A stretch of DNA of 64,000 nt from NCBI RefSeq assembly GCF_000027125.1, contig NC_017626.1; one strand, 5' to 3'. This DNA is from Escherichia coli 042. Lineage in GTDB: Bacteria; Pseudomonadota; Gammaproteobacteria; Enterobacterales; Enterobacteriaceae. Position numbers and translations under genes: made by a program. Below the pieces are notes generated by a model. It was given only the letters and a program-made list of their open reading frames with translations. It was not told the DNA's origin and ran no database searches. This document shows, one piece after another, positions 8,893 through 63,462 of this stretch (positions within the stretch are counted from its first letter, which is position 1; each line of letters opens with the position of its first letter).

Positions 8893-9066
8893 TTTTCTTT
8901 CTTCCAGTCAGGACTGCATCCGATTAATCGTAAGCGCTCCGAGAAGTACGTAGCGTAAGGATTATTTTACAGCTGAGAAGTTTCAGTGCAGCAGTTCATG
9001 CACACGGTTCGACGGCTAGTCATTGATCTTCATAATTACCTCGCGTAAAAAACGGGGTAAGGCCGC

Positions 9067-9496
<430 letters not shown>

Positions 9497-14119: not shown

Positions 14120-15083
14120 CTTACTGAAAAAACACCACAATCTTGTTAAACATCGTCGGGTTGGACTGATTACGTTGCACTTTCACCACATATTCCAGCT
14201 TATCTATTTGGCTTATCACCTACTCCAGACGCTGGCCATCCTTGACCAGTAGCCAGATATGGCTTTTGTCGCAGTCCTGAATCGGCAGGCAGAGAATGTC
14301 TTCAACGTTAAGAGCGCGACGGGCAAAAGCCCACAAAGGTGAGTCATTACACCCGGATGGTAAACAGGCACTTCCTTGTTGTAGAAGCCGTTATATTGTC
14401 CATAATGTCTGGGTTTTTAATGCATACTGGGTAACAACCGGACGAATCTTCGAATATCACTGGCGCTGCCAGCCGGTTTGAATTCATCTCACAACCCTGC
14501 ATAGAGCGAATCTCCTGCCTGCACGTCACTCCACTCCATGGTATCAACTTCACACTCTTTATCTGCGGCTAGCTTCAGCCACCAGATAAGCATCGACTAT
14601 GAAAGATGAGCCATGACAACATAACGTTGGTAACGCTCTGACGCCTTAATGGAAGATGCCTGCCACCATAGGGAATGTAAACGACTGAAGTGTGGCCTTT
14701 AATGCCGTGAACGGCTCATGGTCTCCTGGCACGGTTGCCGCCCCAACCTGTAACAACATTCCACAGTACAATGTCTGTCAGAGTCAGAGCCTCCCATGCT
14801 TGTTGTAGTAACTCTACCAGTTACGAACATCCTTCCTCAAAATTGTTGTCATATCTCGCATGGAAGAAAAGATCCTGGCTAAGGAGCAACACACAACGTA
14901 TTGCGGAACTTGCATATTTTTCCTGTAACTAGTGTATTACCACATATGGTAATAGCTACCTGTGTGGTTTCGCTGGATAGCAAGGGGATTTATAGACTGG
15001 CCCCCTGAATCTCCAGACAACCAATATCACTTAAATAAGTGATAGTCTTAATACTAGTTTTTAGACTAGTCATTGGAGAGCAG

Positions 15084-15449
15084 ATGATTGATGTCTTAGG
15101 ACCGGAGAAACGCAGACGGCGTACTACACAGGAAAAGATCGCTATTGTTCAGCAGAGTTTTGAACCGGGAATGACGGTCTCCCTTGTTGCCCGGCAACAC
15201 GGTGTGGCAGCCAGCCAGTTATTTCTCTGGCGCAAGCAATACCAGGAGGGAAGTCTTACTGCTGTGGCCGCAGGAGAGCAGGTCGTTCCTGCCTCTGAAC
15301 TTGCTGCTGCCATGAAGCAGATTAAAGAACTCCAGCGCCTGCTCGGCAAAAAAACGATGGAAAATGAACTCCTTAAAGAAGCCGTTGAATACGGGCGTGC
15401 AAAAAAGTGGATAGCGCACGCGCCCTTATTGCCCGGGGATGGGGAGTAA
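15084..15449 (+). CDS. insC: IS2 transposase OrfA (InsC)
   Basis: [26 protein letters not shown]...; supplied ORF starts at an upstream GTG. Confidence 0.9.
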
Positions 15450-16310
15450 GCTTAGTCAGCCGTTGTCTCCGGGTGTCGCGTGCGCAGTTGCACGTAATTC
15501 TCAGACGAACCGATGACTGGAAAGATGGTCGCCGCAGCCGTCACTCAGATGATACGGATGTGCTTCTCCGTATACACCATGTTATCGGAGAGCTGCCCAC
15601 GTATGGTTATCGTCGGGTATGGGCGCTGCTTCGCAGACAGGCCGAACTTGATGGTATGCCTGCGATCAATGCCAAACGTGTTTACCGGATCATGCGACAG
15701 AATGCGCTGTTGCTTGAGCGAAAAACCGCTGTACCGCCATCGAAACGGGCACATACTGGCAAAGTGGCCGTGAAAGAAAGCAATCAACGATGGTGCTCTG
15801 ACGGGTTCGAGTTCCGCTGTGATAACGGAGAAAAACTGCGAGTCACGTTCGCGCTGGACTGCTGTGACCGTGAGGCACTGCACTGGGCAGTCACTACGGG
15901 CGGCTTCGACAGTGAAACAGTACAGGACGTCATGCTGGGAGCGGTGGAACGCCGCTTCGGCAACGAGCTTCCGGCGTCTCCAGTAGAGTGGCTGACGGAT
16001 AATGGTTCATGCTACCGGGCTAATGAAACACGGCAGTTTGCCCGGATGTTGGGGCTTGAACCGAAGAACACGGCGGTGCGGAGTCCGGAGAGTAACGGCA
16101 TAGCAGAGAGCTTCGTGAAAACGATAAAGCGTGACTACATCAGTATCATGCCTAAACCAGACGGGTTAACGGCAGCAAAGAACCTTGCAGAGGCGTTCGA
16201 GCATTATAACGAATGGCATCCGCATAGTGCACTGGGTTATCGCTCGCCACGGGAATATCTGCGGCAGCAGGCCAGTAATGGGTTAAGTGATAACAGGTGT
16301 CTGGAAATAT
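15407..16310 (+). CDS. insD: IS2 transposase OrfB (InsD), 3' end altered by nested IS insertion
   Basis: DDE transposase; native ...RCLEI stop replaced, supplied ORF reads through to 16381 inside the IS66-family element. Confidence 0.8.
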
Positions 16311-16395
16311 GTAAGCGTAAACTGACCGCCGTATGTAGCCATCAGACGAGAATTGGTAACTTAGACGCCCATCTGATATAGACGGACATCTAAGT

Positions 16396-16821
16396 ATGGA
16401 ATTACAGGACTGGCGAAAAGAACCTCGTAAAAACTATTCGAATGAATTCAAACTTCGTATGGTGGAACTGGCATCACAACCTGGAGCTTGTGTTGCACAG
16501 ATTGCACGTGAAAATGGCGTCAATGATAATGTTATTTTCAAATGGCTCAGGCTCTGGCAGAACGAAGGGCGTGTTTCGCGGCGTCTTCCGGTAACGACCT
16601 CTTCTGACACTGGCGTTGAATTATTACCTGTAGAAATAACGCCGGATGAGCAGAAAGAACCTGTGGCGGCCATTGCGCCGTCTTTATCCACTTCCACTCA
16701 GACCAGAGTCAGTGCCAGTTCCTGCAAGGTGGAATTCCGTCACGGTAACATGACGCTGGAAAATCCATCGCCAGAGCTGCTCACGGTGTTGATCCGTGAA
16801 CTGACCGGGAGGGGAAGATGA
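16396..16821 (+). CDS. tnpA: IS66-family TnpA (Orf1)
   Basis: YSNEFKLRMVELASQPGACVAQIARENGVNDNVIFKWL. Confidence 0.85.
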   Translation: MELQDWRKEPRKNYSNEFKLRMVELASQPGACVAQIARENGVNDNVIFKWLRLWQNEGRVSRRLPVTTSSDTGVELLPVEITPDEQKEPVAAIAPSLSTSTQTRVSASSCKVEFRHGNMTLENPSPELLTVLIRELTGRGR

Positions 16822-17168
16822 TCTCACTCCCATCAGGTACCCGTATCTGGCTCGTTGCCGGCGTTACCGATATGCGTAAATCCTTCAACGGACTGGGAGA
16901 ACAGGTACAACATGTGCTGAATGATAATCCCTTCTCCGGTCACCTGTTTATCTTCCGTGGCCGACGGGGTGACACCGTCAAAATTCTTTGGGCTGATGCT
17001 GATGGTCTGTGCCTGTTCACCAAACGCCTGGAGGAAGGCCAGTTTATCTGGCCTGCGGTACGTGACGGCAAGGTATCCATTACCCGCTCGCAACTGGCAA
17101 TGCTCCTCGATAAGCTGGACTGGCGTCAGCCAAAAACATCCAGCCGTAACTCACTGACAATGTTGTAA
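16818..17168 (+). CDS. tnpB: IS66-family TnpB (Orf2)
   Basis: MISLPSGTRIWLVAGVTDMRKSFNGL...; overlaps tnpA stop by 4 bp. Confidence 0.85.
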   Translation: MISLPSGTRIWLVAGVTDMRKSFNGLGEQVQHVLNDNPFSGHLFIFRGRRGDTVKILWADADGLCLFTKRLEEGQFIWPAVRDGKVSITRSQLAMLLDKLDWRQPKTSSRNSLTML

Positions 17169-17198
17169 AAAACTCCTGACCGCATTATAAAAACGGTC

Positions 17199-18812
17199 AT
17201 GAGTCAGAAATACCTCATTCGCATCGCAGAGCTGGAAAGGTTGCTCTCTGAGCAGGCTGAAGCCCTCCGTCAGAAAGACCAGCAACTGAGTCTGGTTGAA
17301 GAGACGGAAGCCTTCCTGCGCTCTGCACTGACACGTGCCGAAGAAAAGATCGAAGAAGATGAACGGGAAATAGAACATCTGCGGGCTCAGATAGAAAAAC
17401 TGCGCCGGATGCTGTTCGGTACCCGTTCTGAAAAACTGCGTCGTGAAGTTGAACTGGCTGAGGCTCTGCTGAAACAACGTGAACAGGACAGCGATCGTTA
17501 CAGTGGGCGGGAAGACGATCCTCAGGTTCCCCGCCAGTTGCGACAGTCGCGCCATCGTCGTCCGTTACCGGCACACCTTCCCCGTGAAATACACCGCCTG
17601 GAGCCAGAAGAAAGCTGTTGCCCGGAGTGTGGCGGTGAGCTGGATTATCTGGGGGAAGTCAGCGCTGAACAGCTGGAACTGGTGAGCAGTGCCCTGAAAG
17701 TGATCCGCACAGAACGGGTAAAAAAAGCCTGTACAAAATGTGACTGTATTGTTGAAGCACCGGCGCCGTCCCGCCCGATAGAGCGTGGTATCGCGGGCCC
17801 CGGATTACTTGCCCGCGTGTTAACGGGAAAATACTGCGAACATCTGCCACTGTATCGTCAGAGTGAAATCTTTGCCCGCCAGGGTGTCGAACTGAGCCGG
17901 GCCTTACTCTCCAACTGGGTTGACGCGTGCTGCCAGTTAATGACACCGGTGAATGATGCCCTGTACCGTTATGTAATGAACACCCGCAAGGTTCACACTG
18001 ATGACACACCGGTAAAGGTACTGGCACCGGGTCAGAAAAAGGCGAAAACAGGGCGTATCTGGACGTATGTCCGGGATGATCGCAATGTGGGTTCGTCATC
18101 TCCTCCAGCGGTCTGGTTCGCGTACTCGCCGAACCGGCAGGGGAAACACCCGGAGCAACACCTCCGCCCCTTCCGGGGTATCCTGCAGGCGGATGCGTTC
18201 ACAGGTTACGACAGGTTGTTCAGTGCAGAACGTGAAGGTGGTGCACTGACAGAAGTTGCGTGCTGGGCCCATGCCCGGCGAAAAATCCACGATGTATACA
18301 TCAGCAGCAAAAGTGCGACGGCAGAAGAAGCCCTGAAGCGAATCAGTGAACTGTACGCCATCGAGGATGAAATACGGGGATTACCGGAGTCAGAGCGTCT
18401 TGCCGTCAGGCAGCAGCGAAGCAAAGTGTTACTGACGTCGCTGCATGAATGGATGGTGGAGAAGAATGGTACGCTGTCGAAAAAATCCAGACTGGGCGAA
18501 GCGTTCAGCTATGTACTGAATCAGTGGGATGCCCTCTGTTATTACAGTGATGACGGTCTGGCGGAGGCGGATAATAATGCTGCGGAAAGAGCGCTTCGTG
18601 CAGTCTGTCTCGGAAAGAAAAACTTTATGTTCTTTGGCAGCGATCACGGCGGCGAGCGTGGAGCACTGTTGTACGGGCTGATCGGCACCTGCCGTCTGAA
18701 CGGTATCGATCCGGAAGCGTATCTGCGCCATATCCTGAGCGTACTGCCGGAATGGCCTTCCAACCGAGTTGATGAACTCCTGCCATGGAACGTAGTACTC
18801 ACCAATAAATAA
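17199..18812 (+). CDS. tnpC: IS66-family transposase TnpC (537 aa)
   Basis: N-terminal coiled coil, CxxC...CxxC zinc motif (CCPECGGEL...CTKCDC), DDE-type core. Confidence 0.85.
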   Translation: MSQKYLIRIAELERLLSEQAEALRQKDQQLSLVEETEAFLRSALTRAEEKIEEDEREIEHLRAQIEKLRRMLFGTRSEKLRREVELAEALLKQREQDSDRYSGREDDPQVPRQLRQSRHRRPLPAHLPREIHRLEPEESCCPECGGELDYLGEVSAEQLELVSSALKVIRTERVKKACTKCDCIVEAPAPSRPIERGIAGPGLLARVLTGKYCEHLPLYRQSEIFARQGVELSRALLSNWVDACCQLMTPVNDALYRYVMNTRKVHTDDTPVKVLAPGQKKAKTGRIWTYVRDDRNVGSSSPPAVWFAYSPNRQGKHPEQHLRPFRGILQADAFTGYDRLFSAEREGGALTEVACWAHARRKIHDVYISSKSATAEEALKRISELYAIEDEIRGLPESERLAVRQQRSKVLLTSLHEWMVEKNGTLSKKSRLGEAFSYVLNQWDALCYYSDDGLAEADNNAAERALRAVCLGKKNFMFFGSDHGGERGALLYGLIGTCRLNGIDPEAYLRHILSVLPEWPSNRVDELLPWNVVLTNK

Positions 18813-19039
18813 GCGTCAATACGGTGCTCCGTTGACGCTTACGGAAATATAGGGGCAAATCCAATTTATTCGCAAGTAAAATGCCTGATAAAATACACGA
18901 ATCTAGTAATCATCAATATTTACTCTGGTCGAATGACGCGTGAAGTGGACGGCCAACAGACGCAGTCAGTGATCTACAGCCTGTTGAATAAAACCCCGGA
19001 TGCTTCCCCCGATTCTGCAAGTAATACTTCGGTTATTTG

Positions 19040-19145
19040 CACTATTTTATCCCTGTTGAATTTGGTTAAGCCGGTGCAGACGTGCCGGGAAACGCACACC
19101 TGAACCGGCACAATAAAATACAATACAACCCCCTGTTACTGGAGA
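19040..19145. repeat. 106-bp repeat, copy 1 (copy 2 at 47474-47579, one mismatch)
   Basis: cactattttatccctgttgaatttggttaagccggtgcagacg...ccccctgttactggaga present at both positions. Confidence 0.8.
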
Positions 19146-19445
19146 AATGCCTGCGCCGGGGTCCGATATGGCGGTATTGTTGCAGCCTGCGGCATGGCTC
19201 AGGGGATGGATTTGATGGGCAATATGGCTCCGTTTATTCTGCGTGGTGTCACGCTGAAAGGGATTGATAGCGTCATGTTCGCGAAAGAGAAAAGAGCAGC
19301 AATCTGGCAACAGGCGATATAGTATTTGCCAGAGTCCAGAATGGATAGTCTCACTACCGTTTATCCGCTCAGTGACGCCATCACTGTGGCTGAAAAACTT
19401 CTGAGTGGCGGAATTCGCGGTCGTGCAGTCATTCAATATAGCTAA
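19140..19445 (+). pseudogene. YhdH/AcuI-like oxidoreductase, C-terminal fragment with frameshift
   Basis: Translation [36 protein letters not shown] then, in another frame, LPESRMDSLTTVYPLSDAITVAEKLLSGGIRGRAVIQYS*; no N-terminal part. Confidence 0.45.
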
Positions 19446-19502: not shown

Positions 19503-19962
19503 TTACTGGCTAGTTGTTGCTTCCTGAGAAGACTGATAGCGTACCGAGGTTTTGAAATAGCTCCAGAAGTCGTACACTGGCTCAGTAGAACAATATAGTT
19601 TGGAACGCATTACCGCACCTTCCCAGCCACTCCAGAAAATAGCCGCCAGTTGTGTATTATTCATATTTGAACTTATTTCGCCTGAAGATAACGCGTCGGA
19701 CAGGCAGGCCGCAACAAGTGCCTGCCAGCTCTCAAGAATATTCTGTAGTACTTTAATGAAGGATTGGGGAAGCCCCGGACTCTCCTGCATCATATTTCCA
19801 ACCAGGCAGCCGCGGGTAAAATTGTATTTTTTAATCCCCTCACAGGCATCATTGATGAAATTTTCCAGACGTACCATTGGTGTGCAGGATGATTCATGTA
19901 GATGTTTTTTGAGGTTATGCTCGAAGAAACTGTCATAGGCGTTCAGAACGGTCTGAGCATAA
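19503..19962 (-). pseudogene. TetR-family regulator, C-terminal part (gene split by IS100)
   Basis: Reading frame runs from the IS100 junction (…AQTVLNAYDSFFEHNLKKH…) to stop at 19503; joins in-frame with N-terminal part at 21916-22119 once IS100 and one repeat copy are removed. Confidence 0.75.
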
Positions 19963-22119
<2,157 letters not shown>

Positions 22120-44983: not shown

Positions 44984-45221
44984 GTTTATAAGGTACGGAC
45001 AGCAGTATCGCTTAGTTTTTCAAATTCATGTATGTGAACAATATTGGGGTTCCGGCGTAGACCCCCAATGAAAGCGTCACCACGTGAAAACATGCCTGCA
45101 CGGTTTACACGTCATCCCATGGTGGCAGCCGGTTAACTTTCCTGCGCCACCAGTGGAAAAAGGCCATAAGCAGTCCGAACAAAAGTAAGCGTACAGCGAG
45201 GGCCGTATTGACGGGGATGTG

Positions 45222-46607
45222 TTATTCAGCTGGCAGTGCTATGCGCCACGGAAGCAGTTCGCTGACCCGGTTGACCGGCCAGTCTGCTATGACGCCAAGC
45301 ACATGGCGAAGGTAGCTTTCTGGATCCACGTCATTCAGTTTGCACGTCCCGATCAGGCTGTACAGTAGCGCTCCCCGCTCACCACCATGGCCAGAGCCGA
45401 AGAACAGGGTCTTCATCTTTTCACGCAACCAGCTTTCCAGGGATTTCAACAGCGGTTTCGTTTTTCGCTGACGTTCAGCAAGCCGCTGCTCTGCCGGCAT
45501 TCCCCTTATATCCGCCTCTATGGCGTACAACTGACCGATCTGCTCCAGGGCTTCTTCCGTCAGTGCTGACGGGATGCGGACGTGCACATCGTGGATCTTT
45601 CGGCGGGCATGAGCCCAGCAGGCAGCTTCCGTTATCCCACCATTGCGATACAGCTCGTTGAACCCGGCGTACGCATCCGCTTGCAGCACACCGCTGAAGC
45701 AAGCAAGATGAGTCTGCGGATGGATGCCTTTTCTGTCCGGGCTGTAAGCGAACCACACTGCAGGTGCCAACGCTGACCCGGCATTGCGGTCATCACGAAC
45801 ATACGCCCACAACCGCCCGGTCTTCGTCTTCTTATTACCCGGCAGCAGTACCTGGACCGGGGTATCATCGGCATGGAGTTTGCCGTCAGTCATGACATAG
45901 CCATGAAGCGCCTCTTCCAGCGGAGACAGCAGCCGGCAGCATGCATCCACCCAGCCCGACAGCAGTGAACGGCTCAGCTCCACACCTTGCCGGCCGTATA
46001 TTTCTGACTGGCAATACAGCGGGGTGTGCTCTGCATACTTCGAGGTCAGCACGCGGGCCAGCAGCCCCGGTCCGGCGATACCCCGCTCGATGGGCCGCGA
46101 AGGTGCAGGTGCCTGCACGATGGTATCGCACTGAGTACAGGCATGTTTTTCCCGTACCGTCCGGATAACCCGGAAGGCGCTACGCATCAACTCCAGCTGT
46201 TCGGCGGTATCCTCGCCCAGATAGCTCAGTGAACCGCCGCAGTTCGGGCAGCACGGCGCCGCAGGCAACAGTCGCTTTTCGTCACGGGGTAGTGATTCAG
46301 GGAACGGCTTACGGGTGCGGGTCTGACGCAACGGACGCTGTACTGCCGGGTCATACACCCTAACAGTCAGCGTATCGCTCTCTTTCTGAAGCCGGTTCAG
46401 ATCGGCTTCCATTTGTGCGATACGGCGGGAGACTTTTTCGGAACGACTGCCGAAGTTCATCCGGCGGAGTTTATCCAGCTGCGCCTGCAGATGGTCTATT
46501 TCGCGCTCCCGGTTGCTCAGCTTTTCCTGCAGGGCGTGGATCAGCGCTTCCTGTTCGGCCAGGCGCTGTTTCAGCAGGAAGATGTCGTCAGAAGAGATGT
46601 CGTTCAT
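45222..46607 (-). CDS. tnpC: IS66-family transposase TnpC (461 aa, ~76 aa shorter than copy 1)
   Basis: CCPNCGGSL...CTQCDT zinc motif and DDE core; region between ...[11 protein letters not shown] and ...[11 protein letters not shown] is shorter than in copy 1. Confidence 0.8.
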
Positions 46608-47381: not shown

Positions 47382-47473
47382 ATCTGACACTTTGGTTCCC
47401 ACTACTTATTTGGTGGACACCACTTTGTCTAATTCGTCAGATTCTGACCAGACGGTTCAGGCTGTACGCTTAC

Positions 47474-47579
47474 CACTATTTTATCCCTGTTGAATTTGGT
47501 TAAGCCGGTGCAGACGCGCCGGGAAACGCACACCTGAACCGGCACAATAAAATACAATACAACCCCCTGTTACTGGAGA
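47474..47579. repeat. 106-bp repeat, copy 2 (copy 1 at 19040-19145)
   Basis: Abuts the IS66-family left end at 47473. Confidence 0.8.
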
Positions 47580-49787: not shown

Positions 49788-51016
49788 GATAACGGTTCAT
49801 GTATCCCCTGAGCTGACAGTGTACCGTGTATATTAAGCGTAACCGACAGGTTCTCCTTCATACCATATTAAATTTTCCAGGGATTGCCGCTGCCTTATTT
49901 CGTCCCATACAGGAAAACTCATCTGGGTTTCTGACAAATACGCGAAACTCACAGCCCCTCAATATCAACCACACGTTGTAAGCCGGTAATACCTGAAAAT
50001 CAGCCTATTACCGCCCACGCCTCCGGCACCATTCCCTTTTGATTTCGAATTCTTTGTTGTCGCTATACCGCTTAATGTTCCCGGTCCTCCGGTGCAGATA
50101 ACACCGGAGTCATCGTAGCGCTGCTTCAATATTCAGGTGACATATTTCCAGACGGAAGCCGGCGCGCGATCGTAAAGTTTGTTCATTGTCAGTTCTGCCA
50201 GCCGGTTGTCAACGGCAGAGTTAAAGGCTTCCAGCTCCGCAAGGGTAAGTTTATAACGCGTGTGGGAATTCACTTTTCCCGCGTCTCCTGACGTATTACG
50301 GGCTGCCACTTACCAGGTGTCCCGCAATACAGCCTTAGTGTTCCGTTATCGGGGATCCGGACGCACCGCAACAACCGGGGAAGTATTTCTGGTTTAGAGC
50401 AGTGTCAAGAGGGATTTCTCAGCCCCTCACTCACCGGCTCAGTCTCAGGGCAGGAGCATTAATACGCTCAGTTCATGTCTTATACAGGAATGGGCACAGG
50501 GGGAGCTGGCGTGTCACTGCTGATTTTACGCATCAGCGTTCATGTATCTGCACTCTGATACATGAACGATTCACAGCGCTCTGTTACCGGAGAGATTTAC
50601 TCTCTTAGCTTACTCTGGCAAATCCTTTACGTTACTCTCTGATGACTTCTTATATTTATAATACCAATCAGACAGCCTTATCCCATCGGTGATATCAGTC
50701 TCCTCCTCGCCAGGAACGGGCTGACTCACTGTAACCACCTCCGAAAACAACTCTGCAATTATCAGAACGCCTGCTTCTCTCCCTGTCCTCACGAAAACTA
50801 TCCCCTCTTTATCGCGCGTGCGTGCGGAAGCATCTTTTCGCAACAACCACCCGGTATACCGGTACGGCTCAGCCACCGCAACCTCCCCGTTTATCTCCTG
50901 GCGGTCACATTCCCGATTATTTTTTACGTTTCTCCCCGGTTGTTATGCCGGTGAAGGTGGCGCGCTGTTTTCATGACCACACCGGCTGGTTTAACAACAT
51001 CCGGAGGAACATTCTC

Positions 51017-51223
51017 ATGGCTACCCCAGTTTCACTGATGGATGACCAGATGGTCGACATGGCATTTATCACTCAACTGACCGGCCTGACAGATAAGTGG
51101 TTTTACAGGCTCATCAGGGATGGGGCCTTTCCGGCTCCCATCAAGCTGGGCCGCAGCTCCCGCTGGCTGAAAAGTGAAGTGGAAGCCTGGCTGCAGGCGC
51201 GTATTGCACAGCCCCGCCCGTAA
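51017..51223 (+). CDS. alpA: AlpA-family prophage transcriptional regulator
   Basis: MATPVSLMDDQMVDMAFITQLTGLTDKWFYRLIRDGAFPAPIKLGRSSRWLKSEVEAWL; GGAGG SD 9 nt upstream. Confidence 0.8.
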   Translation: MATPVSLMDDQMVDMAFITQLTGLTDKWFYRLIRDGAFPAPIKLGRSSRWLKSEVEAWLQARIAQPRP

Positions 51224-51311
51224 TTTCTGACCGTTATCCGTTCACCCGCAGCAGACGTAATCCCCGGCCTGCCGGCGGCATTCTGCTGCCTGTTATATCC
51301 CCGTGAGGAAT

Positions 51312-51920
51312 ATGAAAATGAAACAACAGTATCAGACCCGCTACGAATGGCTCCACGAAAGCTACCAGAAATGGCTGACCGGCTTCACCCGGCACGCCGT
51401 ATCCTGGGGCGTGTGTCATCCGAATATCTACTACTTCCATAATCTGACGCCCGGTTGGGTGTCATTCAATGGTGAAAAACCGGAGATTGCCATCGTACCC
51501 CAGAGCCTGCACCGGCTGATTTATGGCCCTGACAAACGGGCCACGCCGCCCCTGGATGATGATCTGATTGTGAATTTATGCACCAGTGAACATCTGCTGG
51601 TTCATCATCCGATGCTGGAAGGCATTCTCCTGTCTGAATGTGAACGTCTGAGGCAGCGTTCTCTGGCAAATAAACTGATCAGCCTCTTCCGTCAGTTTGG
51701 TGGCACGGAGTTGCGCCTCAAACTGGTCTGGCTTTGCTGGCTTGATTTAATGACCGGAAACAGCCTTGAAGACTGGAAAGAGAACCTGAAACGGAAATCA
51801 GAAAAAGAGCTGGAGGAATGGATCATCAACCGTCAGAGGCAGAGCGCAGCACTGACGGATCTGATGGATCAGTACGTGCTCCTGGCATACCGCACAACGG
51901 TTGACGATAGCCGCAACTGA
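51312..51920 (+). CDS. Hypothetical protein (~203 aa), island cargo
   Basis: Supplied ORF; start codon among clustered ATGs at 51312-51320 is uncertain. Confidence 0.45.
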   Translation: MKMKQQYQTRYEWLHESYQKWLTGFTRHAVSWGVCHPNIYYFHNLTPGWVSFNGEKPEIAIVPQSLHRLIYGPDKRATPPLDDDLIVNLCTSEHLLVHHPMLEGILLSECERLRQRSLANKLISLFRQFGGTELRLKLVWLCWLDLMTGNSLEDWKENLKRKSEKELEEWIINRQRQSAALTDLMDQYVLLAYRTTVDDSRN

Positions 51921-53122
51921 TGCCGGTTGCTTCCGGAAGGTGTGACAAAATACGGAAATGATGATGCTCCCGGCCCTGCATGCTCACCTGCAGAGCGTGT
52001 TCGTCGTCATCATACTGAGCCATGACGGGCGTCTTAAGGGCATCCTGTCATTGCTGAGCAGGCAACACCACCAGAGGAGCCACGGACAGGGATGTTCTTT
52101 ACAGCCCGATACACGCCAGGTTCTCAGCAGACTGAATGTGCAGGTGCGGTTATTCACCAGAAATGGCATGCTGCGGTACATACCCATCCTGGTGACAATA
52201 TGTACGTGGCGACAGCGATCCCGGCACTGTGGAAGAGACTCACTCAGCCTGCAGGATATTCTTTCCGGCATCCGGGAATGTCCGCCTGAATGCAAACAGG
52301 ATGATATTTGAATCCGTAATACTGTTCTTTCATCATAAATAATTTATGCAGATACAGTTAACCGTTACAGTAGCCGGTTTGTTTTACCGGGAAATAATAT
52401 CCGTCAGACTGATGCCGGAACATATCTGAAACACGTTATGATGTTTTGTTATCAGAAATGTTGTATATTCTTATCCGTGGCGACAGTTTAATGCCCTCTG
52501 GTATCACCTTGGATAATGCATATCCTGCGATGATTCGTTATATTTACGGGACACGCCTCTTTTCATTGTGCTCCTTTTCAGACTTCATTTTCCGTAAGTG
52601 TTCCCCGGCATAAAGGAGGTACCTTTCTGGCGTTTATAACTCTCTTTATCGGTGACGCCGGTAATACAGGGAATACCACACCGACAAACGAGGTATTAAC
52701 AGACGATATTTCAGTGTCCATAATTTTTCTGTCCGGTTAAATAACGTCAGTCTGCTGCCCTCTGACTGTAATCATCAAAGCCGGAATGCATACCGGGTTA
52801 CAACGTAAAAAAAGTGATGCTGGCCCCCGGTGCAGCTGGCGGGCGAAACATGTTTACCTTTCAATACCCCCTGTCTGCAGTCTCCACTCTTCCATCCTCT
52901 TAAGCTACGTCGGCCACATGAGTGCACTTCCATGATAACAGGTATTCCTGTCAGCATAACGAAGCTGGTTACCTTCCCTTCCTCCTGCATTTCCTGTCAG
53001 AATGACTGTACAGCGCGCAGATTGCCTTTTTATTGACCACCTTAATATACCATTATAAACTTCTTTTTATCATGTTATTATCACCTTATTATGTTTAATT
53101 TTTAAGCAGCCGGAGAAAGGGG

Positions 53123-54001
53123 ATGGTTCAGAAAATTTTGTCGGATAAGGTTATGAATGAAAGAACAAATGCGTATTACTCTTATTATCTTGGAGGGCGT
53201 AATATCTCCGTACTGCCCCTTAATGTTTATGATCCCCCGGAACGTTTTATCGCTTACATAAAAAAAAACAGAGAAAATCTGAACATCACACTTTCAGATT
53301 TTGAACTTGAACAAATAATTTCTGGTATGCGTCTGAAGGCCCTGGCCTTCCTGGTCCCCCTGGAAAAAATATCCTGGATCGCGGGCAGTGAACGCGCATG
53401 CTTATTTTCCTGGTATCTGTTGATGCAGTTTATCCAGAATAACAGGGCAAAAATAAGCGCAGACTTGCTTCAAAAGAATAAACTGTATCTTAAAGAAGAG
53501 TATCTGGAAGGGAATGCCTTCCCGTCGGACTCATCGACACAGTTCAGACAAATACTCAGAGTTCTCGATATTCTTTCTGATAAGAATTTGCGGGATGAGT
53601 GGATAATCCAGACCAAAGACAGATGGATGCGGGCATTTAAATCAAAGAGTCCTTTCAGTTACCTCCTCCCGGAGAACGAACATGAATGCATATGGACATG
53701 GAATTATTTGAAGGGAAAAAATATTGCACTGGAAAAACTGGCCAGTTTTCCTGGTTCTGCTGATATTTACCACGCAATTCACCTTTCATTTGACATATGG
53801 GTTACCTGTCCACTCACCTCACCTGACGATATAAAAAATTTCAGAAACAGTTTCAATAAGGCCAAGGCGCAGCGCAAGTACAAAAAATGCAGGAAGATAA
53901 AGTCAATGTACAGTTTTTTCTTGACGCAGAAACCAGGGCGCAGCTCAAAGAATTATCGAGGGTCAGAAGACTCAGTACCGGCGAAATGCTGCATGACCTG
54001 A
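53123..54001 (+). CDS. Hypothetical protein (292 aa), AT-rich island cargo
   Basis: Supplied ORF; contains A9 homopolymer at ~53255-53263; an alternative frame over the last ~150 bp encodes MQEDKVNVQFFLDAETRAQLKELSRVRRLSTGEMLHDLIVEEYKRYRHSR*. Confidence 0.4.
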   Translation: MVQKILSDKVMNERTNAYYSYYLGGRNISVLPLNVYDPPERFIAYIKKNRENLNITLSDFELEQIISGMRLKALAFLVPLEKISWIAGSERACLFSWYLLMQFIQNNRAKISADLLQKNKLYLKEEYLEGNAFPSDSSTQFRQILRVLDILSDKNLRDEWIIQTKDRWMRAFKSKSPFSYLLPENEHECIWTWNYLKGKNIALEKLASFPGSADIYHAIHLSFDIWVTCPLTSPDDIKNFRNSFNKAKAQRKYKKCRKIKSMYSFFLTQKPGRSSKNYRGSEDSVPAKCCMT

Positions 54002-54065
54002 TTGTTGAAGAGTATAAAAGGTACCGACATTCCAGATAATTTCAGACATATATTATCTCTGTGAG

Positions 54066-54108
54066 TCCCCCGCCACCTTTCCGGTGTGCGGGGGTTTTGT
54101 CTTTTTTC
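54066..54108 (+). terminator. Rho-independent terminator
   Basis: GC stem cccccgc ... gcggggg with short loop, followed by ttttgtctttttt. Confidence 0.5.
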
Positions 54109-54123
54109 ACCGGGAATACATGT

Positions 54124-54996
54124 ATGAATCCGTCTGATGCCATTGAGGCAATTGAAAAACCGCTCTCCTCCCTGCCTTACTCACTTTCCCGTCACATCCA
54201 GGAACATCTGCGCAAACTCACCAGTCACGAACCCGTGATTGGCATTATGGGTAAAAGCGGGGCCGGTAAATCCTCACTCTGTAATGCACTGTTTCAGGGG
54301 GAGGTCACCCCGGTCAGTGATGTTCACGCCGGCACCCGGGAAGTGCGGCGCTTCCGTCTGAGTGGCCACGGTCACAGCATGATTATCACTGACCTGCCCG
54401 GGGTGGGCGAGAGCCGGGACAGGGATGCAGAGTATGAAGCCCTGTACCGTGACATTCTGCCTGAACTTGACCTGGTACTGTGGCTGATTAAAGCCGATGA
54501 CCGTGCCCTGTCTGTGGATGAGTATTTCTGGCGACACATACTGCACCGGGGACATCAGCAGGTGCTGTTTGTGGTGACGCAGGCCGACAAAACGGAGCCC
54601 TGCCATGAATGGGATATGGCCGGCATTCAGCCTTCTCCCGCACAGGCACAGAACATTCGTGAGAAAACAGATGCGGTATTCCGGCTGTTCCGGCCCGTAC
54701 ATCCGGTTGTGGCCGTATCGGCCTGCACCGGCTGGGAACTGGATACGCTGGTCAGTGCGCTCATGACAGCGCTTCCCGACCATGCCGCCAGTCCCCTGAT
54801 GACCCGCCTGCAGGACGAGCTGCGCACGGAATCTGTCCGGTCTCAGGCCCGTGAACAGTTTACCGGTGCGGTGGACCGGATATTTGACACGGCGGAGAGC
54901 GTCTGTATTGCCTCTGTTGCACGCACGGTTCTGCGTGCCGTCCGTGACTCGGTGGTCTCTGTTGCCCGCGCTGTATGGAACTGGATTTTCTTCTGA
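54124..54996 (+). CDS. yeeP: YeeP/YfjP/YkfA-family GTPase
   Basis: MNPSDAIEAIEK...; G1 motif GIMGKSGAGKSS, ITDLPG; start at ATG 54124. Confidence 0.8.
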   Translation: MNPSDAIEAIEKPLSSLPYSLSRHIQEHLRKLTSHEPVIGIMGKSGAGKSSLCNALFQGEVTPVSDVHAGTREVRRFRLSGHGHSMIITDLPGVGESRDRDAEYEALYRDILPELDLVLWLIKADDRALSVDEYFWRHILHRGHQQVLFVVTQADKTEPCHEWDMAGIQPSPAQAQNIREKTDAVFRLFRPVHPVVAVSACTGWELDTLVSALMTALPDHAASPLMTRLQDELRTESVRSQAREQFTGAVDRIFDTAESVCIASVARTVLRAVRDSVVSVARAVWNWIFF

Positions 54997-55104
54997 ACAG
55001 TCTGCCAGGGGAAATGCCTGATTACATTGCGTTAACCAACTGAAAACATGACACAAACACCTCATGCTCCTCCTGTTTCTCTTGCGTGACCGCCTTGCAA
55101 TCAA

Positions 55105-55160
55105 TAGAATAAAACGATCGATAAAACAGGTATCGATCGTTACTATCGATCGTTTATAGT
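55105..55160 (+). promoter_or_regulatory. Antigen 43 phase-variation switch (three Dam GATC sites, OxyR site)
   Basis: GATC at 55116-55119, 55135-55138 and 55148-55151, embedded in repeated cgatcg(a/t)t units, ~220 bp upstream of flu start. Confidence 0.65.
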
Positions 55161-55368
55161 GGTTAATGGTCTGCGAAAAGGCAGCTGAATCTCTTCATCA
55201 TGCAGAACGGAATTGCACACAACGGACTGATACTTCTCTGGCGGATGAGAGAGGGGAAGCATTTATGCCCGGGAAAAACCACTTTATCTGACCATGCTGT
55301 TTTGTACCTGCCGGTATCCACATTTGTGGGTACCGGCTTTTTTATTCACCCTCTGTAAGGAAAAGCTG

Positions 55369-58215
55369 ATGAAACGACATCTGAACACCAGCTACAGGCT
55401 GGTATGGAATCACATTACGGGCACCCTGGTGGTGGCTTCCGAACTGGCGCGCTCACGGGGAAAACGCACCGGTGTGGCGGTTGCGCTGTCTCTTGCTGCT
55501 GTCACGTCAGTCCCGGTACTGGCTGCTGACACGGTCGTACAGGCGGGAGAAACCGTGAGCGGCGGAACACTGACAAATCATGACAACCAGATTGTCTTCG
55601 GTACGGCCAACGGAATGACCATCAGTACCGGTCTGGAGTATGGGCCGGATAACGAGGCCAATACCGGCGGACAATGGATACAAAATGGCGGTATCGCCAA
55701 CAACACTACTGTCACCGGTGGTGGTCTTCAGAGAGTGAATGCCGGAGGAAGCGTTTCAGACACGGTTATCAGTGCCGGAGGCGGACAGAGCCTTCAGGGG
55801 CAGGCAGTGAACACCACTCTGAACGGCGGTGAGCAGTGGGTACATGAAGGCGGGATTGCAACGGGTACCGTCATTAATGAGAAGGGCTGGCAGGCCGTCA
55901 AATCCGGCGCAATGGCAACCGACACGGTTGTGAATACCGGCGCGGAAGGGGGACCGGATGCAGAAAATGGTGATACCGGGCAGTTTGTTCGCGGAAATGC
56001 CGTACGTACCACTATCAATGAAAATGGTCGTCAGATTGTGGCTGCTGAAGGAACAGCAAATACCACTGTGGTTTATGCCGGCGGCGACCAGACGGTACAC
56101 GGGCATGCGCTGGATACCACACTGAATGGCGGTTACCAGTATGTGCACAACGGAGGCACAGCCTCTGACACGGTTGTAAACAGTGACGGCTGGCAGATTG
56201 TCAAGGAAGGTGGTCTGGCGGATTTCACCACCGTTAACCAGAAAGGCAAACTGCAGGTGAACGCCGGTGGTACAGCCACGAATGTCACCCTGAAGCAGGG
56301 AGGCGCACTGGTCACCAGTACGGCGGCAACCGTCACCGGCAGCAACCGTCTGGGCAATTTCACTGTGGAAAACGGTAATGCTGACGGTGTTGTTCTGGAG
56401 TCCGGTGGTCGCCTGGATGTACTGGAGGGCCATTCAGCCTGGAAAACACTGGTGGATGACGGCGGAACCCTGGCAGTGTCTGCCGGTGGTAAGGCAACAG
56501 ATGTCACCATGACATCCGGTAGTGCCCTGATTGCAGACAGTGGTGCCACTGTTGAGGGGACCAATGCCAGCGGTAAGTTCAGTATTGATGGCACATCCGG
56601 TCAGGCCAGCGGACTGCTGCTGGAAAATGGCGGCAGCTTTACGGTTAATGCCGGAGGACTGGCCAGCAACACCACTGTCGGACATCGTGGAACACTGACG
56701 CTGGCTGCCGGGGGAAGTCTGAGTGGCAGAACACAGCTCAGTAAAGGTGCCAGCATGGTACTGAATGGCGATGTGGTCAGTACCGGCGATATTGTTAACG
56801 CAGGGGAGATTCGCTTTGATAATCAGACGACACCGGATGCCGCGCTGAGCCGTGCTGTTGCAAAAGGCGACTCCCCGGTAACGTTCCATAAACTGACCAC
56901 CAGTAACCTCACCGGTCAGGGTGGCACCATCAATATGCGTGTTCGCCTTGATGGCAGCAATACCTCTGACCAGCTGGTGATTAATGGTGGTCAGGCAACC
57001 GGCAAAACCTGGCTTGCGTTTACAAATGTCGGAAACAGTAACCTCGGGGTGGCAACCTCCGGACAGGGTATCCGGGTTGTGGATGCACAGAATGGCGCCA
57101 CCACAGAAGAAGGTGCGTTTGCCCTGAGTCGCCCGCTTCAGGCCGGCGCCTTTAACTACACCCTGAACCGTGACAGCGATGAAGACTGGTACCTGCGCAG
57201 TGAAAATGCTTATCGTGCTGAAGTCCCCCTGTATACATCCATGCTGACACAGGCAATGGACTATGACCGGATTCTGGCAGGCTCCCGCAGCCATCAGACC
57301 GGTGTAAACGGTGAAAATAACAGCGTCCGTCTCAGCATTCAGGGCGGTCATCTCGGTCACGATAACAACGGCGGTATTGCCCGTGGAGCCACGCCGGAAA
57401 GCAGCGGCAGCTATGGCTTCGTCCGTCTGGAGGGTGACCTGCTCAGAACAGAGGTTGCCGGTATGTCTCTGACGACAGGGGTGCATGGTGCCGCAGGCCA
57501 TTCTTCCGTTGATGTTAAGGATGATGACGGTTCCCGCGCCGGCACGGTCCGGGATGATGCCGGCAGCCTGGGCGGATACCTGAATCTGACACACACGTCC
57601 TCCGGCCTGTGGGCTGACATTGTGGCACAGGGAACCCGCCACAGCATGAAAGCGTCATCGGACAATAACGACTTCCGCGCCCGCGGCTGGGGCTGGCTGG
57701 GCTCACTGGAAACCGGTCTGCCCTTCAGTATCACTGACAACCTGATGCTGGAGCCACAACTGCAGTATACCTGGCAGGGACTTTCCCTGGATGACGGCCA
57801 GGATAACGCCGGTTATGTGAAGTTCGGGCATGGCAGTGCACAACATGTGCGTGCCGGTTTCCGTCTGGGCAGCCACAACGATATGAGCTTTGGTGAAGGC
57901 ACCTCATCCCGTGACACCCTGCGCGACAGTGCAAAACACCGTGTGCGTGAACTGCCGGTGAACTGGTGGGTACAGCCTTCTGTTATCCGCACCTTCAGTT
58001 CCCGGGGTGACATGAGCATGGGGACAGCCGCCGCCGGCAGTAACATGACGTTCTCACCGTCCCGGAATGGCACGTCACTGGACCTGCAGGCCGGACTGGA
58101 AGCCCGTGTCCGGGAAAATATCACCCTGGGCGTTCAGGCCGGTTATGCCCACAGTGTCAGCGGCAGCAGCGCTGAAGGTTATAACGGTCAGGCCACGCTG
58201 AATGTGACTTTCTGA
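55369..58215 (+). CDS. flu: Antigen 43 autotransporter adhesin (948 aa)
   Basis: [33 protein letters not shown]... signal/extended leader, beta-helical passenger repeats, C-terminal beta-barrel ending ...GQATLNVTF. Confidence 0.9.
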
Positions 58216-58235
58216 TAATCAGGTCACTCTCCTTC

Positions 58236-58268
58236 AGGCCCCGGTCATCATGACCGGGGCTTTTTACT
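58236..58268 (+). terminator. Rho-independent terminator after flu
   Basis: gccccggtcat ... atgaccggggc stem followed by ttttt. Confidence 0.6.
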
Positions 58269-58598
58269 TTCAGGGAGCAACAGATATGCCGGGTTGTACA
58301 TCACGTTTATTGCCCGAAGGCCCTTTCTCACGCGAACAGGCTGTTGCCGTCAAAACAGCTTACCGCAATGTGTTTACTGAAGATGACCAGGGAACATATT
58401 CCCGGCTGGTTATCCGTAATGCTGAAGGTCAGTTGCGCTGGTGATGCCGGAACACAGCTTAATACTCAGCTCGCCAGTTAAGGGCTTCTCAGACAATAAA
58501 CGTCATTCATTTCATCTGTCAGGCCGCGTCTTCTCCGGGAGACGCAGCTTTTTCATTTATTACACCAGTAAATCGTAACCACCGATAAGGAGCAAATT

Positions 58599-59417
58599 AT
58601 GCGACTAGCCAGTCGTTTTGGTTATGCGAACCAGATACGCCGTGACCGTCCGCTGACACACGAAGAACTGATGCACTATGTTCCCAGTATTTTCGGTGAA
58701 GACCGGCATACTTCCCGCAGTAAACGATATGCGTACATTCCCACCATCACCGTACTGGAAAGCCTGCAGCAGGAAGGTTTTCAGCCATTCTTCGCCTGCC
58801 AGACCCGCGTGCGCGACCCGGGCCGCCGGGGATACACAAAACACATGCTGCGTCTGCGGCGGGCCGGAGAGATAAACGGAGAACATGTCCCTGAAATTAT
58901 TCTGCTCAACTCTCATGACGGTACCTCCAGCTACCAGATGCTGCCGGGTTACTTCAGATTCGTCTGCCAGAATGGCTGCGTCTGCGGTCAGTCTCTGGGG
59001 GAAGTGCGTGTTCCACACCGGGGAAATGTGGTGGAGAAAGTTATCGAAGGGGCTTACGAAGTGGTGGGGGTTTTTGACCGGATTGAGGAAAAGCGTGATG
59101 CCATGCAGTCGCTGGTCCTGCCGCCACCGGCACGCCAGGCGCTGGCACAGGCGGCACTGACTTACCGTTATGGTGACGAACATCAGCCAGTCACCACCGC
59201 TGACATTCTGACGCCACGACGCCGGGAGGATTACGGTAAGGACCTGTGGAGTACTTATCAGACCATCCAGGAGAATATGCTGAAAGGCGGGATTTCCGGC
59301 CGCAGTGCAAAAGGAAAACGTATCCACACCCGTGCCATTCACAACATCGACACCGATATTAAGCTCAACCGCGCATTGTGGGTAATGGCAGAAACGCTGC
59401 TGGAGAGCCTGCGCTGA
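58599..59417 (+). CDS. DUF932-family protein (YafZ/YfjQ-like)
   Basis: 272 aa MRLASRFGYANQIRRDRPLTHEELMHYVPSIFGEDRH...; position between flu and antirestriction gene. Confidence 0.6.
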   Translation: MRLASRFGYANQIRRDRPLTHEELMHYVPSIFGEDRHTSRSKRYAYIPTITVLESLQQEGFQPFFACQTRVRDPGRRGYTKHMLRLRRAGEINGEHVPEIILLNSHDGTSSYQMLPGYFRFVCQNGCVCGQSLGEVRVPHRGNVVEKVIEGAYEVVGVFDRIEEKRDAMQSLVLPPPARQALAQAALTYRYGDEHQPVTTADILTPRRREDYGKDLWSTYQTIQENMLKGGISGRSAKGKRIHTRAIHNIDTDIKLNRALWVMAETLLESLR

Positions 59418-59758
59418 TGCAGCATGTCCCTGAAGGCGTGATTCAGGCACCAGAATCACCCGACGCCCCGGAGGCGCTGCCGGGGTGTCGTTCCATTTCT
59501 GATGATGACCTGTGCGCCTGGTGTACCCGTCTGCTTTACCGTCCCGGAGAAATCAGTCTGTGCAGACTGAGTATACAGGCAATGGCATCTGGCCATCCGT
59601 CTGTGACCGGAACGGTTACGCGTACGGCTGTCCGGAATTTCAGCCGAATATCATTCATCCCTGATATTACCGGGTCATCACGGTCAGTGATGAACGTGAT
59701 GTTGCCAGGTCCCGACCTTTACTCCCTCTCATTTATTCACATTACAAGGATTTCATAC

Positions 59759-60232
59759 ATGAAAACATTGTCTCAGAACACCACCTCTTCGGCCTGTGCA
59801 CCGGAGACTGACCTGCAACAACTGGTTGCCACCCTCGTCCCTGATGAACAGCGCATCAGCTTCTGGCCGCAGCACTTTGGCCTCATTCCACAGTGGGTGA
59901 CCCTGGAGCCCCGTGTCTTCGGCTGGATGGACCGTCTGTGCGAAGACTACTGCGGTGGTATCTGGAATCTGTACACCCTGAACAACGGCGGGGCATTTAT
60001 GGCACCCGAACCGGATGACGATGATGACGAAACATGGGTACTGTTCAATGCCATGAACGGTAACCGCGCTGAAATGAGTCCGGAAGCTGCCGGCATTGCT
60101 GCCTGTCTGATGACGTACAGTCATCATGCCTGTCGTACGGAGTGTTATGCCATGACGGTCCATTATTACCGGCTGCGGGATTACGCCCTGCAGCATCCGG
60201 AATGCAGCGCCATTATGCGCATCATCGACTGA
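59759..60232 (+). CDS. Antirestriction protein (KlcA/ArdB-like; YfjX/YafX-type)
   Basis: MKTLSQNTTSSACAPETDLQQLVATLVPDEQRISFWPQHFGLIPQWV...; start at ATG 59759 within the supplied longer ORF. Confidence 0.7.
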   Translation: MKTLSQNTTSSACAPETDLQQLVATLVPDEQRISFWPQHFGLIPQWVTLEPRVFGWMDRLCEDYCGGIWNLYTLNNGGAFMAPEPDDDDDETWVLFNAMNGNRAEMSPEAAGIAACLMTYSHHACRTECYAMTVHYYRLRDYALQHPECSAIMRIID

Positions 60233-60724
60233 ATGGAGAGAAGTACAATGCAACAGCTTTCCTTTCTGCCCGGAGAGATGACGCCCGGCGAGCGCAGCCT
60301 CATTCAACGGGCCCTGAAAACCCTGGACCGCCATCTTCATGAACCCGGCGTGGCCTTCACCTCCACCCGTGCGGCACGAGAATGGCTGATTCTGAACATG
60401 GCGGGACTGGAGCGTGAAGAGTTCCGGGTGCTGTATCTGAACAACCAGAATCAGCTGATTGCCGGTGAAACCCTCTTCACCGGCACCATCAACCGCACGG
60501 AAGTCCATCCCCGTGAAGTGATTAAACGCGCCCTGTATCACAATGCCGCTGCTGTGGTGCTGGCACACAATCACCCGTCCGGTGAAGTCACACCCAGCAA
60601 GGCAGACCGCCTTATCACGGAACGTCTGGTACAGGCACTGGGCCTGGTGGATATCCGGGTGCCGGACCATCTGATAGTCGGTGGCAGCCAGGTTTTCTCC
60701 TTTGCCGAACATGGTCTGCTTTAA
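60233..60724 (+). CDS. yeeS: RadC-like JAB-domain protein
   Basis: ...HNHPSGEVTPSKADRLITERL JAMM-like motif; start may be the internal ATG at 60248. Confidence 0.8.
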   Translation: MERSTMQQLSFLPGEMTPGERSLIQRALKTLDRHLHEPGVAFTSTRAAREWLILNMAGLEREEFRVLYLNNQNQLIAGETLFTGTINRTEVHPREVIKRALYHNAAAVVLAHNHPSGEVTPSKADRLITERLVQALGLVDIRVPDHLIVGGSQVFSFAEHGLL

Positions 60725-60786
60725 CCCGTCACAACCACATCACACCTGTTTTCACTTTTATCTTCTGTCTTCAGAGGTATCCCACC

Positions 60787-61008
60787 ATGAAAATCATCAC
60801 CCGTGGCGAAGCCATGCATATTCACCGTCAGCATCCGGCATCCCGTCTTTTTCCGTTCTGTACCGGCAAATACCGCTGGCACGGCAGTGCTGAAGCGTAT
60901 ACCGGTCGTGAAGTGCAGGATATTCCCGGTGTGCTGGCCGTGTTTGCAGAACGCCGTAAGGACAGTTTTGGTCCGTATGTCCGGCTGATGAGCGTCACCC
61001 TGAACTGA
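60787..61008 (+). CDS. yeeT: DUF987 protein YeeT-like
   Basis: 73 aa MKIITRGEAMHIHRQHPASRLFPFCTGKYRWHGSAEAYTGREVQDIPGVLAVFAERRKDSFGPYVRLMSVTLN. Confidence 0.85.
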   Translation: MKIITRGEAMHIHRQHPASRLFPFCTGKYRWHGSAEAYTGREVQDIPGVLAVFAERRKDSFGPYVRLMSVTLN

Positions 61009-61170
61009 TGTTCCGTCACCCGGAAAACGAGTACGACTGGCTGAGCTCAGACGCCGCTGTGGATGAGGTCCTGCTCATCAACGAATACACCTTTACCGAA
61101 GCCGGTCTGCGCGCCGGCTGACCCGTCATCGTTAAACTATCATTCACCGATTTTCTGTGAGGATTTTATC

Positions 61171-61539
61171 GTGTCAGACACACTTTCCGGGACAACGCAT
61201 CCCGATGACAATGACGACCATCCCTGGTGGGGACTACCCTGCACAGTGACGCCCTGTTTCGGCGCCCGTCTGGTGCAGGAGGGTAACCGGTTGCATTACC
61301 TTGCCGACCGTGCCGGTATCAGAGGCCGGTTCAGAGATGCGGATGCGTACCCTCTGGACCAGGCCTTTCCGCTGCTGATGAAACAACTGGAATTAATGCT
61401 CACCAGTGGTGAACTGAATCCCCGCCATCAGCATACCGTGACACTGTATGCGAAGGGGCTGACCTGTGAAGCCGACACCCTCGGCTCCTGTGGTTACGTT
61501 TATCTGGCTGTTTATCCGACACCTGAAACGAAAAAGTAA
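61171..61539 (+). CDS. cbeA: Type IV antitoxin CbeA (YeeU-like)
   Basis: GTG start at 61171 after [55 protein letters not shown]... Confidence 0.85.
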
Positions 61540-61628
61540 ACCACCGGAATAACCTTCTGCTCCGGCCTGGTGTTTTCACCACGCCACTGTCCCATTTTTT
61601 ATCTCTGCATATCAGGAAAATCTTCAGT

Positions 61629-62003
61629 ATGAAAACATTACCCGACACGCATGTACGGGAGGTATCGTGCTGCCCGTCTCCCGTCACCATCTGGCAGACA
61701 CAGCTCACCCGACTGCTGGACCAGCACTACGGCCTTACGCTGAATGACACACCGTTCGTGGATGAACGTGTGATTGAGCAGCATATTGAGGCAGGCATTT
61801 CACTGTGTGACGCGGTGAACTTTCTCGTTGAAAAATACGCGCTGGTACGTACCGACCAGTCGGGATTCAGCGCAGGAGCCTCGTCGCAGTTAATCAACAG
61901 CATTGATATTCTCCGGGCTCGCCGGGCAACAGGCCTGATGACCCGCCACAACTACAGAACGGTGAACAATATCACCCTGGGTAAGTATCCGGAGGCGAAA
62001 TGA
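61629..62003 (+). CDS. cbtA: Toxin CbtA (YeeV-like)
   Basis: 124 aa ...[49 protein letters not shown]...; 4-bp overlap with downstream yeeW-like gene. Confidence 0.85.
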
Positions 62004-62131
62004 TGAAACTGGCCCTGACACTGGAAGCCGACAGTGTTAACGTACAGGCACTGAATATGGGGCGAATTGTCGTTGACATTGATGGTGTTAATCTCGCTGA
62101 ACTGATTAACATGGTCTGCGATAACGGCTAC
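62000..62131 (+). pseudogene. yeeW: yeeW-like gene, N-terminal part (split by IS2)
   Basis: [44 protein letters not shown] then IS2; rejoins in-frame with 63463-63827. Confidence 0.7.
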
Positions 62132-62142
62132 TGGATTTGCCC

Positions 62143-63371: not shown

Positions 63372-63462
63372 CTGCTCTCCAATGACTAGTCTAAAAACTA
63401 GTATTAAGACTATCACTTAAATAAGTGATATTGGTTGTTTGGAGATTCAGGGGGCCAGTCTA

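Follow-up and report, generated by a model that had tools for sequence, protein, structure and literature searches.

ISEc23 nested within the right inverted repeat of an IS2 copy in Escherichia coli 042

How did an IS66-family element come to lie between two parts of an IS2 in Escherichia coli 042, which of the two arrived first, and what does the arrangement do to each of them? We analyzed a stretch of 64,000 nucleotides (contig NC_017626.1, henceforth the window), in which the locus spans positions 14988-18868. The surrounding DNA is intergenic, with a DeoR-regulator/ilvN-like pseudogene on one side and, on the other, a small 'alcohol dehydrogenase' ORF that lies upstream of acuR. Annotation pipelines already label the locus as a partial IS3-family transposase pseudogene beside ISEc23. 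A preliminary description had reported a nested insertion with intact target-site duplications around both elements, and all of its coordinates, including those of the repeats, are correct to the base.

The outer element is IS2. It occupies 14993-16310 on the plus strand (IS2 bases 1-1318, aligned without gaps to K-12 IS2A) and 18851-18863, also on the plus strand, where its last 13 bp (AGGGGCAAATCCA) form the outer tip of the right inverted repeat. Removal of ISEc23 and one copy of the 8-bp sequence GGAAATAT yields an IS2 of 1,331 bp, equal in length to K-12 IS2A. The rejoined sequence aligns to IS2A with no gaps and 95.7% identity (57 substitutions), and is 98.0% identical to the intact IS2 within the window (62132-63462) and 99.9% identical to an intact IS2 in strain 50579417. 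The left inverted repeat starts at 14993 on the plus strand, and the terminal repeats (TAGACTGG... and ...CAAATCCA) match those of K-12 IS2A apart from a single substitution, which falls in the inner right repeat. The plus-strand genes are insC (15084-15449) and insD (from 15407), with the A6G frameshift motif (AAAAAAG) at 15401-15407. The 121-aa InsC does not differ from K-12 InsC, and InsD differs from its K-12 counterpart at 11 of 301 residues. The NCBIfam models score 276 bits for IS2 TnpA (cut-off 229) and 706 bits for IS2 TnpB (cut-off 597), and Pfam detects rve, rve_3 and HTH_21 in the IS2 proteins. ATTTA flanks the element at 14988-14992 and 18864-18868, as had been claimed, and the uninterrupted target, base-identical in strain SK1144, contains a single ATTTA. 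Six other IS2 copies were examined, and four had a 5-bp duplication.

The inner element is an IS66-family member with tnpA (16396-16821), tnpB (16818-17168) and tnpC (17199-18812). It covers 2,532 bp on the plus strand (16311-18842), appears intact, and is flanked by GGAAATAT at 16303-16310 and 18843-18850, 13 bp from the IS2 right end, exactly where the preliminary description had placed it. Its ends read GTAAGCG...CGCTTAC, and the inverted repeats agree at 22 of 30 positions. Pfam detects HTH_Tnp_1, TnpB_IS66, DDE_Tnp_IS66 (E = 9e-98), zf-IS66, LZ_Tnp_IS66 and DDE_Tnp_IS66_C, and the NCBIfam models for IS66 TnpA (NF047595), TnpB and the transposase all score above their cut-offs. We use the name ISEc23 on the basis of the PGAP label 'IS66-like element ISEc23 family transposase', a label borne by 100%-identical DNA in strains that include CV839-06. 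Many E. coli genomes and plasmids carry ISEc23 copies with which it shares 99.8-100% identity. Five copies at other loci in other genomes all have a length of exactly 2,532 bp; an 8-bp duplication of their own flanks four of these, and the L004 copy has none. Judging from its fully intact appearance, ISEc23 is presumably still mobile. The 2.5-kb segment is absent from K-12 IS2A, from the copy at 62132-63462 and from four copies in other genomes, so it is not a natural part of IS2.

The two sets of repeats record how the elements came together. An exact repeat at two fixed element ends has a chance probability of ~1e-3 for a 5-mer and ~1.5e-5 for an 8-mer; the ATTTA and GGAAATAT repeats are not explained by chance. 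The bases duplicated around ISEc23 are IS2 bases 1311-1318 (positions 14-21 when the right inverted repeat is numbered from its tip), and with the insert excised IS2 is again full-length; ISEc23 therefore entered IS2 and not the reverse, which bears out the preliminary reading. We consider it highly likely (probability about 0.93) that the locus arose by two successive transpositions, of IS2 and then of ISEc23 into IS2. In the proposed history, IS2 would have inserted into the intergenic DNA upstream of acuR, duplicating ATTTA. ISEc23, with its DDE transposase TnpC and accessory proteins TnpA and TnpB, would then have entered IS2 and duplicated bases 1311-1318, probably from a plasmid-borne copy in the same strain. 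We infer this order of arrival from the structure, since a search of 5,426 E. coli genomes for a contiguous match to this site with IS2 but not ISEc23 found none. High-coverage candidates for such an intermediate turned out to be two separate pieces joined by the search.

We examined how widely the locus occurs. Other E. coli genomes have the target uninterrupted, and a 600-bp empty-site query was covered at at least 80% in 928 genomes. Among 5,426 complete E. coli genomes, the exact IS2::ISEc23 junction was found only in CV839-06, ETEC1731 and ETEC1747, all porcine ETEC, at the same locus and with 100% identity; the search reports only the best place per record, and a second copy inside one genome could escape it. 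The junction was absent from the PLSDB plasmids (72,556) and from JGI metagenome contigs. A single-locus junction at 100% identity fits one event that was vertically inherited. ISEc23 copies of 100% identity occur on plasmids NZ_CP025752.1 and NZ_CP122817.1 of junction-bearing strains, and these plasmid-borne copies are therefore plausible donors. Strain N51, with 91% coverage, seemed to hold a diverged nested copy; it actually has a different IS66-family element and, after it, an intact IS2, in the same intergenic region.

The position of ISEc23 matters for the mobility of IS2. IS2, a member of the IS3 family, transposes by a copy-out/paste-in mechanism via a minicircle, and the right inverted repeat is its only donor end. 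Here the insertion interrupts this repeat behind position 13, or behind position 21 when the duplicated bases are counted. The tip at 18851-18863 contains the 11-bp cleavage domain (domain structure from PMC3299598) and is now 2.5 kb away from the greater part of the transposase-binding domain. In this repeat, loss of a single base at position 14, 26 or 29 is already enough to prevent circles from forming (PMC3299598). With the cleavage domain set apart from most of the binding domain at the donor end, the interrupted IS2 copy is probably immobile; on the published biochemistry (PMC3299598), neither circles nor transposition would be predicted.

The same separation bears on whether the two elements could have come to the site together. 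ISEc23 might have entered IS2 elsewhere, and the 3,871-bp composite might then have transposed as a unit into ATTTA by means of the IS2 ends. The 5-bp duplication does surround the whole composite, and the IS2-only intermediate was not found at the site in the 5,426 genomes. However, the divided donor end, in an element where single-base deletions abolish circles (PMC3299598), argues against such transposition, as does the restriction of the junction to one locus across the genomes, plasmids and metagenome contigs searched, and we regard this history as very unlikely. Alternatively, a resident IS2 at this locus could have acquired a right end already containing ISEc23 from another IS2 copy, through homologous recombination or gene conversion. 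Several IS2 copies are present in the window and in these genomes, and there are traces of IS-mediated rearrangement nearby. Nevertheless, no other junction locus was the best match of any record among genomes or plasmids, and the interrupted IS2 has no visible mosaic break in identity, a weak test given that only 13 bp of IS2 follow the insert; such an exchange is highly improbable.

A different question is whether ISEc23 chose its target, that is, whether it specifically targets the IS2 right inverted repeat and did not strike it at random. The two elements are often near each other, a second ISEc23-in-IS2 event is present in EC25, and 23CRST030 has the same match pattern. Against a site preference, EC25 carries its insertion at another point of IS2, ~190 bp from the end, with the duplication AAAACGAT; four other 8-bp targets share no common motif, the inspected neighbours are separate insertions in IS-rich islands, the reverse nesting of IS2 inside ISEc23 also occurs, and the exact junction arose only once. 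We find it hard to credit such a preference. An assembly artefact from collapsed or joined repeated IS copies has a negligible probability: misassembly at IS elements is a classic problem, but the same arrangement is present in three independently assembled complete genomes as well as in the window, and a chimeric join would not give precise nested duplications of the length expected for each IS family. Two successive transpositions remain our preferred reading of the locus.

The nesting also alters the insD reading frame. According to the preliminary description, the insertion removes the native InsD stop and the frame reads through into the IS66 end. The read-through is real, with an InsD of 324 aa here versus 301 aa in K-12, but the stop is split and not deleted: its T stays with the left copy of GGAAATAT and its AG follows the right copy, which changes TAG to TGT. 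The extended ORF (15407-16381, plus strand, stop at 16379-16381) continues after ...CLEI for 23 residues, encoded by 23 extra codons inside the left end of ISEc23, and terminates 14 nt short of ISEc23 tnpA. Only residues 1-301 are covered by the NCBIfam IS2 TnpB profile. When 14900-19000 was scanned for promoters and terminators, the counts did not exceed those expected from shuffled sequence and nothing usable emerged; in the same interval no terminator-like site was placed between the extended InsD frame and tnpA. Since an IS2 transcript and the InsD/InsCD frame would enter ISEc23 with no such site between them, IS2 expression could drive or modulate the ISEc23 transposase; independently of this, the lengthened transposase, with its 23 added residues, could work in trans on IS2 copies elsewhere and with changed activity. 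We consider both effects unlikely, if conceivable, outcomes of the nesting.

Both elements, and nesting of this sort, are well known, and the event is an ordinary and already annotated one whose significance goes very little beyond bookkeeping. The nested junction is a clean lineage-specific marker for the porcine ETEC group (CV839-06, ETEC1731 and ETEC1747). The insertion is a sign of recent ISEc23 activity, probably from plasmid to chromosome, and offers a natural example of one IS that would have disabled another by splitting its donor end.

We compared the locus with other occurrences of the two elements. Proximity of IS2 and ISEc23 was considered as a possible sign of repeated nesting; two of eight inspected cases were independent nestings at other positions, and the other inspected cases were adjacent elements in IS-rich islands. 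EC25 has ISEc23 inside IS2 and plasmid pCFS3292-2 has IS2 inside ISEc23, each with the expected duplication and each at another position and locus, as an independent event. ISEc23 elsewhere shares the 2,532-bp length, the GTAAGCG... ends, the ATGA overlap of tnpA and tnpB, tnpC and the 8-bp duplication; the element itself shows no differences, and only its position within IS2 is particular. With K-12 MG1655 IS2A (IS3 family, IS2 group) the outer element shares its length of 1,331 bp once rejoined, the terminal repeats, an identical InsC, the A6G frameshift motif, the InsD rve domain and the 5-bp duplication, whereas it differs in its interrupted right inverted repeat and in the 23-residue C-terminal extension of InsD.

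We read positions 14700-19200 and then extracted the element ends, and the resulting layout agrees with every coordinate and repeat in the preliminary description. The outer element, IS2 (IS3 family), starts at 14993 with TAGACTGGCCCCCTGAATCTCC and its left portion ends at 16310. Its final 13 bp (AGGGGCAAATCCA) lie at 18851-18863, and the whole is bounded, as described, by 5-bp copies of ATTTA at 14988-14992 and 18864-18868. The IS66-family element within it (16311-18842; 2,532 bp, ends GTAAGCGTAAACTG ... CGTTGACGCTTAC) sits 13 bp from the IS2 right end and is bounded by 8-bp copies of GGAAATAT at 16303-16310 and 18843-18850.

Joining 14993-16310 to 18851-18863 yields 1,331 bp that align without gaps to IS2A of K-12 MG1655 (NC_000913.3 381260-382590), with 57 substitutions (95.7% identity). 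Both IS2 proteins match IS2 models in Pfam and NCBIfam; InsC is identical to K-12 InsC, InsD differs from K-12 InsD at 11 of 301 residues, and the A6G frameshift motif (15401-15407) is intact. An intact 1,331-bp IS2 at 62132-63462 (minus strand) has its own 5-bp duplication GCTAC (62127-62131 and 63463-63467). It shares 98.0% identity with the interrupted copy, which means that at least two IS2 variants are present in the genome. Strain 50579417 carries an intact IS2 that is 99.9% identical to the interrupted one. Reference IS2 thus lacks the 2.5-kb segment.

The three inner proteins match IS66 TnpA, TnpB and TnpC (Pfam and NCBIfam), and in RefSeq, 100%-identical DNA is annotated as ISEc23. 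At each of five unrelated loci ISEc23 has these same ends and a length of exactly 2,532 bp. Four of these five copies have their own 8-bp duplications (AATTGAGG, GTATTGGT, GGTTAACA, AAAACGAT); the copy in another genome (L004) has no 8-bp duplication at its flanks. Of 5,426 complete E. coli genomes, 2,488 carry an ISEc23-like element at full length. The ends and ORFs of ISEc23 are intact and identical to widespread protein accessions, from which we presume that the element is still active.

The 8-bp duplication around ISEc23 corresponds to IS2 bases 1311-1318, and IS2 is whole again once the insert is taken out. It was thus ISEc23 that entered IS2, which supports the proposed order, IS2 first and ISEc23 later. 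In the simplest history, IS2 would have inserted at ATTTA and ISEc23 would afterwards have entered the resident IS2, duplicating bases 1311-1318. ISEc23 copies with 100% identity to this one are carried by plasmids in CV839-06 and ETEC1731 and also occupy further chromosomal positions, which points to recent transposition, plausibly with a plasmid copy as the donor.

The insertion splits the native InsD stop codon (CTG GAA ATA TAG becomes CTG GAA ATA TGT AAG ...), so that 23 residues are added to InsD and to the InsCD fusion transposase, which has the same C-terminus. The ORF thus runs into the IS66-family end, as first noted, and stops at 16379-16381, 14 nt ahead of ISEc23 tnpA (16396). A simple promoter and terminator scan found nothing exceeding shuffled expectation and no terminator-like site in the insD-tnpA gap; transcriptional read-through from IS2 into ISEc23 may be possible. 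Lewis et al. report that IS2 circles form with the right repeat as the sole donor end. Beside the IS2 tip only 21 bp of this repeat are left (13 bp and the 8 duplicated bases), and its main binding region now lies 2.5 kb away, so the interrupted copy is very probably unable to transpose.

The best matches to a 600-bp empty-site query (both flanks and a single ATTTA) were unbroken and 99.8% identical, and 928 complete E. coli genomes reached at least 80% coverage of the query. Over 75 bp around the site, SK1144 has exactly the reconstructed empty-site sequence. In several RIVM_C0xxxxx human isolates an IS2 lies about 200-600 bp from this empty site, a hint that IS2 repeatedly inserts in the intergenic region. 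An intermediate probe, IS2 alone at the ATTTA site, had no contiguous match. In the genome search, the nested structure with its flanks was found at 100% identity only in the porcine ETEC strains CV839-06, ETEC1731 and ETEC1747, all pig isolates with the elements at the same locus. The window is ~99.9% identical to CV839-06 up to ~46.5 kb and diverged past ~50 kb, so it stems from a close relative, not necessarily CV839-06 itself. Its source strain differs from CV839-06 in the ~50000-64000 island, where identity is 89-95%, the order is rearranged, and IS2, Ag43 and a GTPase family protein are present.

Misassembly as the source of the arrangement is excluded: three independent complete assemblies agree and the nested duplications are precise. 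Transposition of IS2::ISEc23 as one composite unit is disfavoured, because the junction is confined to a single locus and the donor end is split. A 160-bp probe of the left IS2/ISEc23 junction matched contiguously in the same three strains only and had no match among PLSDB plasmids, and the junction 33-mer was absent from JGI metagenome contigs. For gene conversion from a different junction copy, no donor came to light. Against a site-specific preference of ISEc23 for the IS2 end, EC25 has ISEc23 at another IS2 position, pCFS3292-2 has the reverse nesting (IS2 in ISEc23), and the IS2/ISEc23 neighbours inspected are independent insertions in IS-rich islands.

The surrounding region is rich in IS elements. 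IS100 (IS21 family, istA/istB; 1,954 bp, 19963-21916), 1.1 kb to the right and bounded by the 6-bp direct repeat GCATAA (19957-19962 and 21917-21922), splits a TetR-family regulator gene whose counterpart in SK1144 is uninterrupted and bears the annotation acuR. Two 100%-identical copies of an 82-bp terminal fragment from the IS66 family (ends GTACGCTTAC) lie at 27046-27127 and within 47392-47579. The latter adjoins a 106-bp duplicate (47474-47579) that is 99% identical to 19040-19145, the normal place of this DNA, 170 bp right of the nested elements; together these look like the scar of an older IS66-mediated rearrangement. Diverged IS66-family remnants match parts of ISEc23 at 9065-9407 (73%) and 45185-46508 (~66%), and at the second CV839-06 has truncated IS66 tnpA, tnpB and tnpC in RefSeq. 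E. coli N51 (L011, NZ_CM165887.1, 2700-6500) has another IS66-family element and then an intact IS2 in this intergenic region, which follows the DeoR regulator; the genes that come next (YagK/YfjJ and zinc-ribbon) resemble those found at ~47.5-50 kb of the window. The N51 arrangement suggests that the intergenic site is both an IS landing zone and a recombination point.

The preliminary description was thus right in both observation and interpretation. The nested arrangement is useful as a lineage marker and offers a tidy case of one IS disabling another. It is nevertheless an ordinary finding: nesting of one IS in another is routine in E. coli islands, IS2 and ISEc23 are both catalogued insertion sequences, and RefSeq genomes already contain the arrangement, where it is annotated as a pseudogene of a partial IS3-family transposase beside ISEc23.
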